A stretch of 64,000 nt of DNA from Ginglymostoma cirratum (Eukaryota). The stretch covers positions 16,271,946-16,335,945 of the forward strand of contig JAHRHZ010000264.1 of NCBI GenBank assembly GCA_024137785.1, given 5' to 3'. Of this stretch, positions 27,719-27,762 are shown piece by piece (the stretch's first letter is position 1; the number at the start of each line of letters is the position of its first letter). The notes below the pieces were generated by a model. The model had not been told where the DNA came from. It searched no databases and saw only the letters and a program-made list of their open reading frames with translations. The position numbers and the translations under genes were made by a program.

Positions 27719-27762
27719 CAGAGTTCTGAGGAAGGGTCACTGGACCCGAAACGTTAACTCTG
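27719..27762 (+). ncRNA. Minimal type I hammerhead ribozyme (PLE-type), intact core
   Basis: CAGAGTT (stem I) - CTGAGGA - A - GGGTC ACTG GACCC (stem II) - GAAA - CGTT - AACTCTG (stem I). 7-bp stem I, palindromic ACGT stem III, predicted cleavage after 27755. Confidence 0.8.

Follow-up and report, generated by a model that had tools for sequence, protein, structure and literature searches.

Hammerhead motif

A complete type I minimal hammerhead ribozyme motif (min-HHR) lies at 27719–27762 on the + strand of the window, i.e. the whole 64-kb stretch of shark DNA that was analysed. On re-reading, its letters and coordinates, the full core, the 7-bp stem I, the 5-bp stem II and the loopless ACGU stem III were exactly those given in an earlier note on this DNA. 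The extra A claimed there after A9 was present at 27733, and the cut position predicted there, after 27755, agreed with ours. The parts of the motif are as follows:

27719–27762, + strand: minimal hammerhead motif, type I, with a complete core, stems I and II and a loopless ACGU stem III
27719–27725, + strand: stem I, 5′ strand
27726–27732, + strand: C3–A9 of the hammerhead core
27733, + strand: extra A after A9
27734–27747, + strand: stem II, 5 bp with a 4-nt loop
27748–27751, + strand: G12–A15.1
27752–27754, + strand: C15.2 G16.2 U16.1
27755, + strand: U17, with the predicted cut directly 3′ of 27755
27756–27762, + strand: stem I, 3′ strand, closing the 7-bp stem I

We checked the core position by position: C3 U4 G5 A6 N7 G8 A9, G12 A13 A14, the pair A15.1–U16.1 and H17 were all present. 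The motif also has the traits described for the min-HHRs of metazoan Penelope-like elements (PLEs), namely an extra nucleotide after position 9, G10.1–C11.1 and a palindromic 15.2–16.2 without a loop (Cervera and De la Pena 2014, PMC4209133). Like the type I min-HHRs in that source, it lacks loop 3. In contrast, stem I has 7 bp here and 4–5 bp in the Schistosoma families, and stem II has 5 bp here and 7–8 bp in Schistosoma. No shark example was found in the portions of its text and supplement considered here.

In the predicted fold of the monomer (44-mer), stems I and II both formed, with an energy of −16.1 kcal/mol; a fold as good was reached by 4 of 200 shuffles. For the + arm alone, the modelled pairing probabilities were 0.99 for stem I, which is open-ended, and 1.0 for stem II.

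The earlier note had proposed a hammerhead search. A minimal-hammerhead descriptor picked out two sites in the 64-kb window (27719 and 48243), while 200 dinucleotide-preserving shuffles gave no site at all. The Rfam models did not find the motif: nothing reached the gathering score in the whole window, and no hammerhead match appeared at E values up to 10 in 26900–30100. The loopless stem III likely falls outside the Rfam hammerhead models.

Insertion around the motif

The hammerhead at 27719 is not a free-standing element. It belongs to one arm of a head-to-head insertion (27037–27874) that is flanked by a target-site duplication (TSD):

27037–27049, + strand: left TSD, 13 nt, 12/13 identical to the right copy
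27050–27148, − strand: tail-less inverted arm, 95/99 identical to the + arm
27149–27317, no strand: filler between the arms, of which the first 70 nt are a dispersed repeat with five further places in the window
27318–27717, no strand: run of 400 N between the arms, true length and content hidden
27719–27861, + strand: tailed arm, corresponding to the pLTR end of a PLE, 143 nt, with the 5′ end cut by the N run
27821–27861, + strand: tail of about 40 nt, on the tailed arm only
27862–27874, + strand: right TSD, 13 nt

The motif starts one base 3′ of the N run (27318–27717), which hides its upstream context. The hammerhead of the inverted arm (27050–27148) is broken at G16.2/U16.1, and 4 nt of the 5′ strand of its stem I are left. 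The repeat in the first 70 nt of the filler (27149–27317) is, we assume, CR1-like.

The locus had been described as a short non-coding Penelope-like element. The Penelope type held, while the idea of a stand-alone element did not, since the inverted arm and the TSD bound one larger insertion.

Complex insertions of EN+ PLEs comprise an inverted pLTR, a one-sided 30–40-bp tail, a TSD and sequence captured between the pLTRs, according to the portions of Arkhipova et al. 2013 (PMC3846280) and Craig et al. 2021 (PMC8557442) considered here. The shark insertion resembles the insertions in these portions in its head-to-head arms, one-sided tail, TSD, captured sequence and assembly gap. A head-to-head inverted 5′ copy was present at 27037–27874. 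Against an expected tail of 30–40 bp, the tailed arm exceeded the tail-less arm by 40 nt there (136 vs 96) and by 43 nt (132 vs 89) at a second insertion, 47681–48345. Two differences were seen: the shark arms are reduced to the last 90–140 nt, without an ORF, and the TSDs in the shark window are 11–15 nt long, compared with 8–10 nt in the Adineta PLE insertions as far as these portions go.

All structural features tested mark the locus as a truncated insertion of a Penelope-like element that carries a minimal hammerhead; the link to an autonomous parent is indirect, and catalysis is putative. The layout of inverted pLTR, tail and minimal hammerhead has already been published for PLEs, and this copy is mostly ordinary.

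Sister insertions in the window

Three further insertions of the same build were found in the window:

29786–29961, − strand: sister insertion, same subfamily, TSD 29786–29800 / 29947–29961 (14/15)
47681–48345, no strand: sister insertion, second subfamily, TSD 14/14, tail 43 nt
22085–22317, no strand: sister insertion, third subfamily, older, TSD 10/11, gap-free

The insertion at 29786–29961 has a tail-less arm (29801–29903) with an intact core and a 1-nt insertion at stem I, followed by filler and, judged by eye, an apparent tail-end remnant directly before the right TSD. At 47681–48345, a tailed arm (47695–47823, −) is followed by a 400-N run and a tail-less arm (48239–48331, +) with an intact core. 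At 22085–22317, a tailed arm (−) and a tail-less arm (+) meet with nearly no spacer, and both cores are decayed. Two further fragments of these repeat families were aligned: a tailed end truncated where the window begins (1–75, +) and a heavily decayed arm (32686–32800, −). The family is dense, with 10 arms or fragments in 63 kb.

TSDs were found at all four insertions examined (12/13, 14/14, 10/11 and 14/15 at 27037, 47681, 22085 and 29786, respectively). In the same order, a TSD as good arose by chance in fractions of 0.001, 0, 0.007 and 0 of 3000 random pairs. This stricter test was designed after we had seen an earlier, looser one, in which the fractions were 0.014, 0, 0.12 and 0 of 2000, so the TSD of the oldest insertion (22085–22317) was weak in the looser test.

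Among the seven arms that reach the motif, the core was intact in three, decayed in three and cut by an N run in one. None of the seven begins at the cut site. The starts range from about 7 nt before C3 to a few nt into the core, with two of the seven censored by N runs.

Two of the three N runs of the window are exactly 400 N long (27318–27717 and 47824–48223), and both lie inside fold-back pairs. At 47824–48223, an identical 16 nt stands on both sides of the run, which suggests a placeholder gap at the hairpin centre. These observations raise the question of whether the pairing or the long stem I could be an assembly artefact at a hairpin beside a gap. We consider this highly improbable: 4 of 99 positions are different between the two arms, TSDs enclose them, the pair at 22085–22317 is gap-free, and a whale-shark gene model (P0003) crosses the palindrome centre and implies the same five upstream bases on both arms.

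Shark family and indirect link to Penelope reverse transcriptase

A HMMER search with a 43-residue reading of the arm returned five proteins, among them two whale-shark gene models with 89% and 80% identity. The remaining three matches were of low identity, and one of these (P0002) resembles a leucine-rich repeat. The arm-peptide search of longer proteins gave no match.

The whale-shark model P0003 runs through the palindrome centre, and its residues fit the antisense and sense readings of the arm up to 5 nt before C3. These residues imply that the five bases upstream are shared by both arms, so that a stem I of 5 bp or longer would be native to the family. The argument is drawn from amino acids, and the outer 2 bp of the 7 lie outside its reach. 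The idea that the 7-bp stem I is specific to this copy was dropped for this reason.

In the second model, P0005, the arm peptide is joined to a stretch of 79 residues; read on its opposite strand, this stretch is compatible with a PLE reverse transcriptase (RT) around YIDD. When antisense P0005 was compared with 31 RT/GIY-YIG relatives, 26 of the 31 scored above all 15 shuffles, the best with 35 of 54 positions. These proteins are relatives fetched with a GIY-YIG frame; for several the score falls on a neighbouring motif, and for one it exceeds the shuffles by a narrow margin. Domain scans of two of the 31 gave RVT_1 and GIY-YIG matches in both, above the curated cut-offs in one. A first test of antisense P0005, against 12 frames from metagenome loci in the codon-aligned frame, had given 0 of 12 above the shuffles. 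Four frames shown from that test had no in-frame YIDD, and the test was repeated on the longer proteins. The link to RT comes from one gene model (P0005) read backwards, and this model may be spliced. P0003 and P0005 are probably spurious gene models of these repeats, one covering the palindrome centre and the other antisense Penelope RT.

Tblastn with the 31 RT/GIY-YIG proteins gave no PLE ORF in the window, and neither the window nor the protein search with the arm peptide yielded an autonomous parent element as DNA. The assignment of the hammerhead to Penelope, which the earlier note had made, was borne out by the min-HHR traits (PMC4209133) and by the tie of the family to Penelope RT in the whale shark. 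A Penelope-like retrotransposon of sharks, truncated to its pLTR end, is the likely source of the insertion at 27037–27874. The literature searched gave no account of the family; Repbase and Dfam lay outside the search and may well hold it.

Same build in other animals

The motif pattern was found at 120 loci in metagenome contigs, with 99 distinct motifs, in what appears to be host DNA of other animals. Beyond the motif, nothing in the 120 loci was similar to the arms of the window (the five BLAST hits did not extend past the first 49 nt). In features outside the search pattern, stem I had at least 3 bp in 69 of the 99 distinct motifs (5.7% by chance) and never more than 6, and position 17 was other than G in 96 of 99.

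An upstream inverted partner was present for 23 of 84 motifs with at least 300 nt upstream and for 0 of 34 control stretches; the controls were shorter, spanning 500 nt as against 1200 nt for the motifs. A direct repeat scoring at least 9 (TSD-like) was found in 11 of 14 long pairs, and in 10 of these 11 the repeat abuts one arm, with 27–58 nt extra on the other arm; these TSD-like figures are raw counts. The inverted partners and TSD-like repeats in other animals indicate that the build is general to these elements and not shark-specific. Among 23 long frames scanned, four are GIY-YIG frames that end 99–164 nt upstream of the motif, three of the four probably being one element.

Opposite-strand min-HHR pairs 100–700 bp apart have been noted before, and the copies described are mostly lone or truncated (PMC4209133).

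Three minor observations were made with the same pattern. It matches exactly inside a glycine-cleavage P-protein frame at one metagenome locus (L065:407–435), without stem I. This match is due to chance, illustrates the false-positive side of the pattern and was left in the metagenome counts. Five loci (L024, L069, L005, L006 and L077) carry related motifs whose stem I is seemingly shifted by one base after position 17 (A or G); they are possible hammerhead variants. In viral contigs, the pattern was absent.

Predicted cleavage in place

According to the folding models, the motif at 27719 is probably silent where it sits. The duplex between the arms was predicted at −199 kcal/mol, compared with −38 kcal/mol for the + arm alone. 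In a read-through RNA of the + strand (with the N run left unpaired), 42 of the 44 motif bases were paired with the upstream inverted arm, and the probabilities of stems I and II fell from 0.99 and 1.0 to near 0 once this arm was included. All of these are equilibrium models, computed without co-transcriptional folding, Mg2+, proteins or tertiary contacts.

The earlier note had expected cleavage after 27755 when the motif pairs with a second copy. In place this is doubtful: besides the predicted sequestering of 42 of 44 bases, no compatible partner is visible. The only other intact core on the + strand is 20.5 kb away and would form swapped stems of 2 bp. A tandem copy able to act as dimer partner could be concealed in the 400-N run, whose real length might greatly exceed 400 nt. 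If transcription began between the arms, the ribozyme would, in the models, be free, and cleavage of an isolated engineered dimer is plausible. The modelled energies were −30.3 for the active dimer, −32.2 for two monomers and −35.8 kcal/mol for an inactive dimer.

We regard it as very improbable that the motif at 27719 is catalytically active and, dimerised with a further copy, cleaves a host pre-mRNA or some other transcript of the host. In favour of activity, no core nucleotide is damaged, the 7-bp stem I exceeds that of all 99 distinct relatives, the dimer-competent structure lies just 1.9 kcal/mol above two monomers, and the density of the family makes partners in trans conceivable. On the other side stand the predicted sequestering by the inverted arm, the lower energy of the inactive dimer and the mere 2 bp in the swapped stems with the next intact core on the + strand. 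In addition, no host exon was found, published min-HHRs were inactive as monomers and weak as dimers (PMC4209133), and the ribozyme of the anole element PAc needed protein, with no RNA-seq ends at its cut site (PMC11167929). Were host RNA cut by this copy after all, we would have a rare instance of a vertebrate transcript targeted by the ribozyme of a transposon; nothing points there.

Origin of the two arms

Our main reading, with a probability of about 0.8, is that a TSD-bounded, truncated pLTR stump of a shark Penelope-like element lies at 27037–27874, with the minimal hammerhead at the inner end of an arm and predicted to be silent in place. By analogy with PAc, the element's protein would nick both DNA strands about 11–15 nt apart, and reverse transcription would run from each nick, starting at either of two internal sites ~40 nt apart. 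The two start sites would give rise to the tailed and the tail-less arms. The cDNAs would end just 5′ of the hammerhead core and then be joined head-to-head, with or without filler. The RNA template would be uncleaved, because the arms keep the core and none begins at the cut site. In the parent's tandem pLTRs, the ribozyme may act as a stem-swapped dimer, aided by the element's protein; in the stump, any RNA covering the two arms would have the ribozyme tied up in pairing with the inverted one.

PAc, a Poseidon element of Anolis, nicks and extends both strands, and its two internal start sites define the tail (Frangieh et al. 2024, PMC11167929). The same paper describes the tail and the insertion of uncleaved RNA. 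Two RT starts, extension of both strands and an uncleaved template together would yield the shark build. In contrast to PAc, which is an intact element tested in vitro, the shark stump is known from sequence only, and its parent may be a Poseidon or a Neptune element.

The arm-forming step might also have taken a different course, in which the element and its silence are the same and the inverted arm arose because a single cDNA folded back and primed itself, or because an antisense template was copied. The rest of the main reading is unaffected by this alternative, which we hold to be possible, if on the unlikely side. The arms of a pair are near-identical (95/99 and 84/86), the centres of two pairs are tight palindromes, and self-priming is the route favoured in the portion of Arkhipova et al. 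2013 (PMC3846280) considered here. Filler of at least 170 nt between arms and the occurrence of the tail on either arm, however, fit two independently primed strands, and in vitro PAc was seen to extend each of the two strands and to use two start sites (PMC11167929).

That the whole hairpin is a non-autonomous unit, MITE-like or retrozyme-like, which moves as one piece, is improbable. The insertions are short and non-coding, with inverted ends, TSDs and several subfamilies, as such a unit would be, and animal retrozymes derive from pLTRs (preprint 10.64898/2026.07.22.740005, considered in part). But the centres differ from one insertion to the next (with sizes of about 1 nt, a few nt, about 26 nt and at least 170 nt), the arms are unequal, the TSD length varies from 11 to 15 nt, and one whale-shark arm continues into RT sequence. 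Animal non-LTR retrozymes, as described in the parts of PMC7229834 and of the preprint that were considered, are likewise non-coding, hammerhead-bearing and pLTR-related; they are, however, direct tandem repeats or monomers of these, whereas the shark insertions are inverted pairs without a tandem copy. No direct tandem repeat of the hammerhead-bearing unit was found in the window (Tandem Repeats Finder and the list of direct repeats, with the N run unread).

Beyond the stump itself, the main reading can be extended to shark genomes as a dense record of PLE landings, in which both nicked strands would be copied from uncleaved RNA, with the copies ending just 5′ of the hammerhead, and every landing would create an antisense arm of its own that silences the ribozyme in host transcripts. 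The present subfamily, whose stem I is unusually long, would then be a strong candidate for protein-free dimer cleavage once released from that arm. We consider this extension speculative and unlikely to hold in full.

Thousands of min-HHR motifs are known from the genomes of fish, coelacanth and frogs, and the shark copy is one more. In practice, it is useful to know that N runs and spurious gene models in sharks occur at hairpins of this family and that Rfam misses the motif. Short TSD-bounded pairs could serve as a data set for how PLEs build their inverted ends, whether by priming on both strands or by fold-back.

Host gene and further window content

The motif had been placed within a putative host pre-mRNA, which found no support: none of the 217 stop-to-stop frames of at least 62 aa in the window and none of the 66 exon candidates had a match at the Pfam cut-off. 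These nulls mean a lack of support, not a disproof, and the window could lie inside a long intron. Six weak Pfam matches occurred among the 217 frames, one of which is a LINE RT remnant. The window has no tRNA gene.

This remnant (59361–59990, +) is a decayed fragment of a LINE reverse transcriptase with a weak RVT_1 match (E 0.0013); by tblastn, it is not Penelope RT. The fragment at 59361–59990 is presumably CR1-like.

Two direct duplications were also seen. The first (32255–32484 and 33129–33396) is diverged, with 72% identity over 275 columns and its copies about 870 nt apart, and is possibly the remains of old LINEs. The second is a 55-nt direct repeat of 82% identity at 25081–25135 and 26624–26678, in otherwise unrelated surroundings; its first copy reads HLAIQHADLNINNILII.
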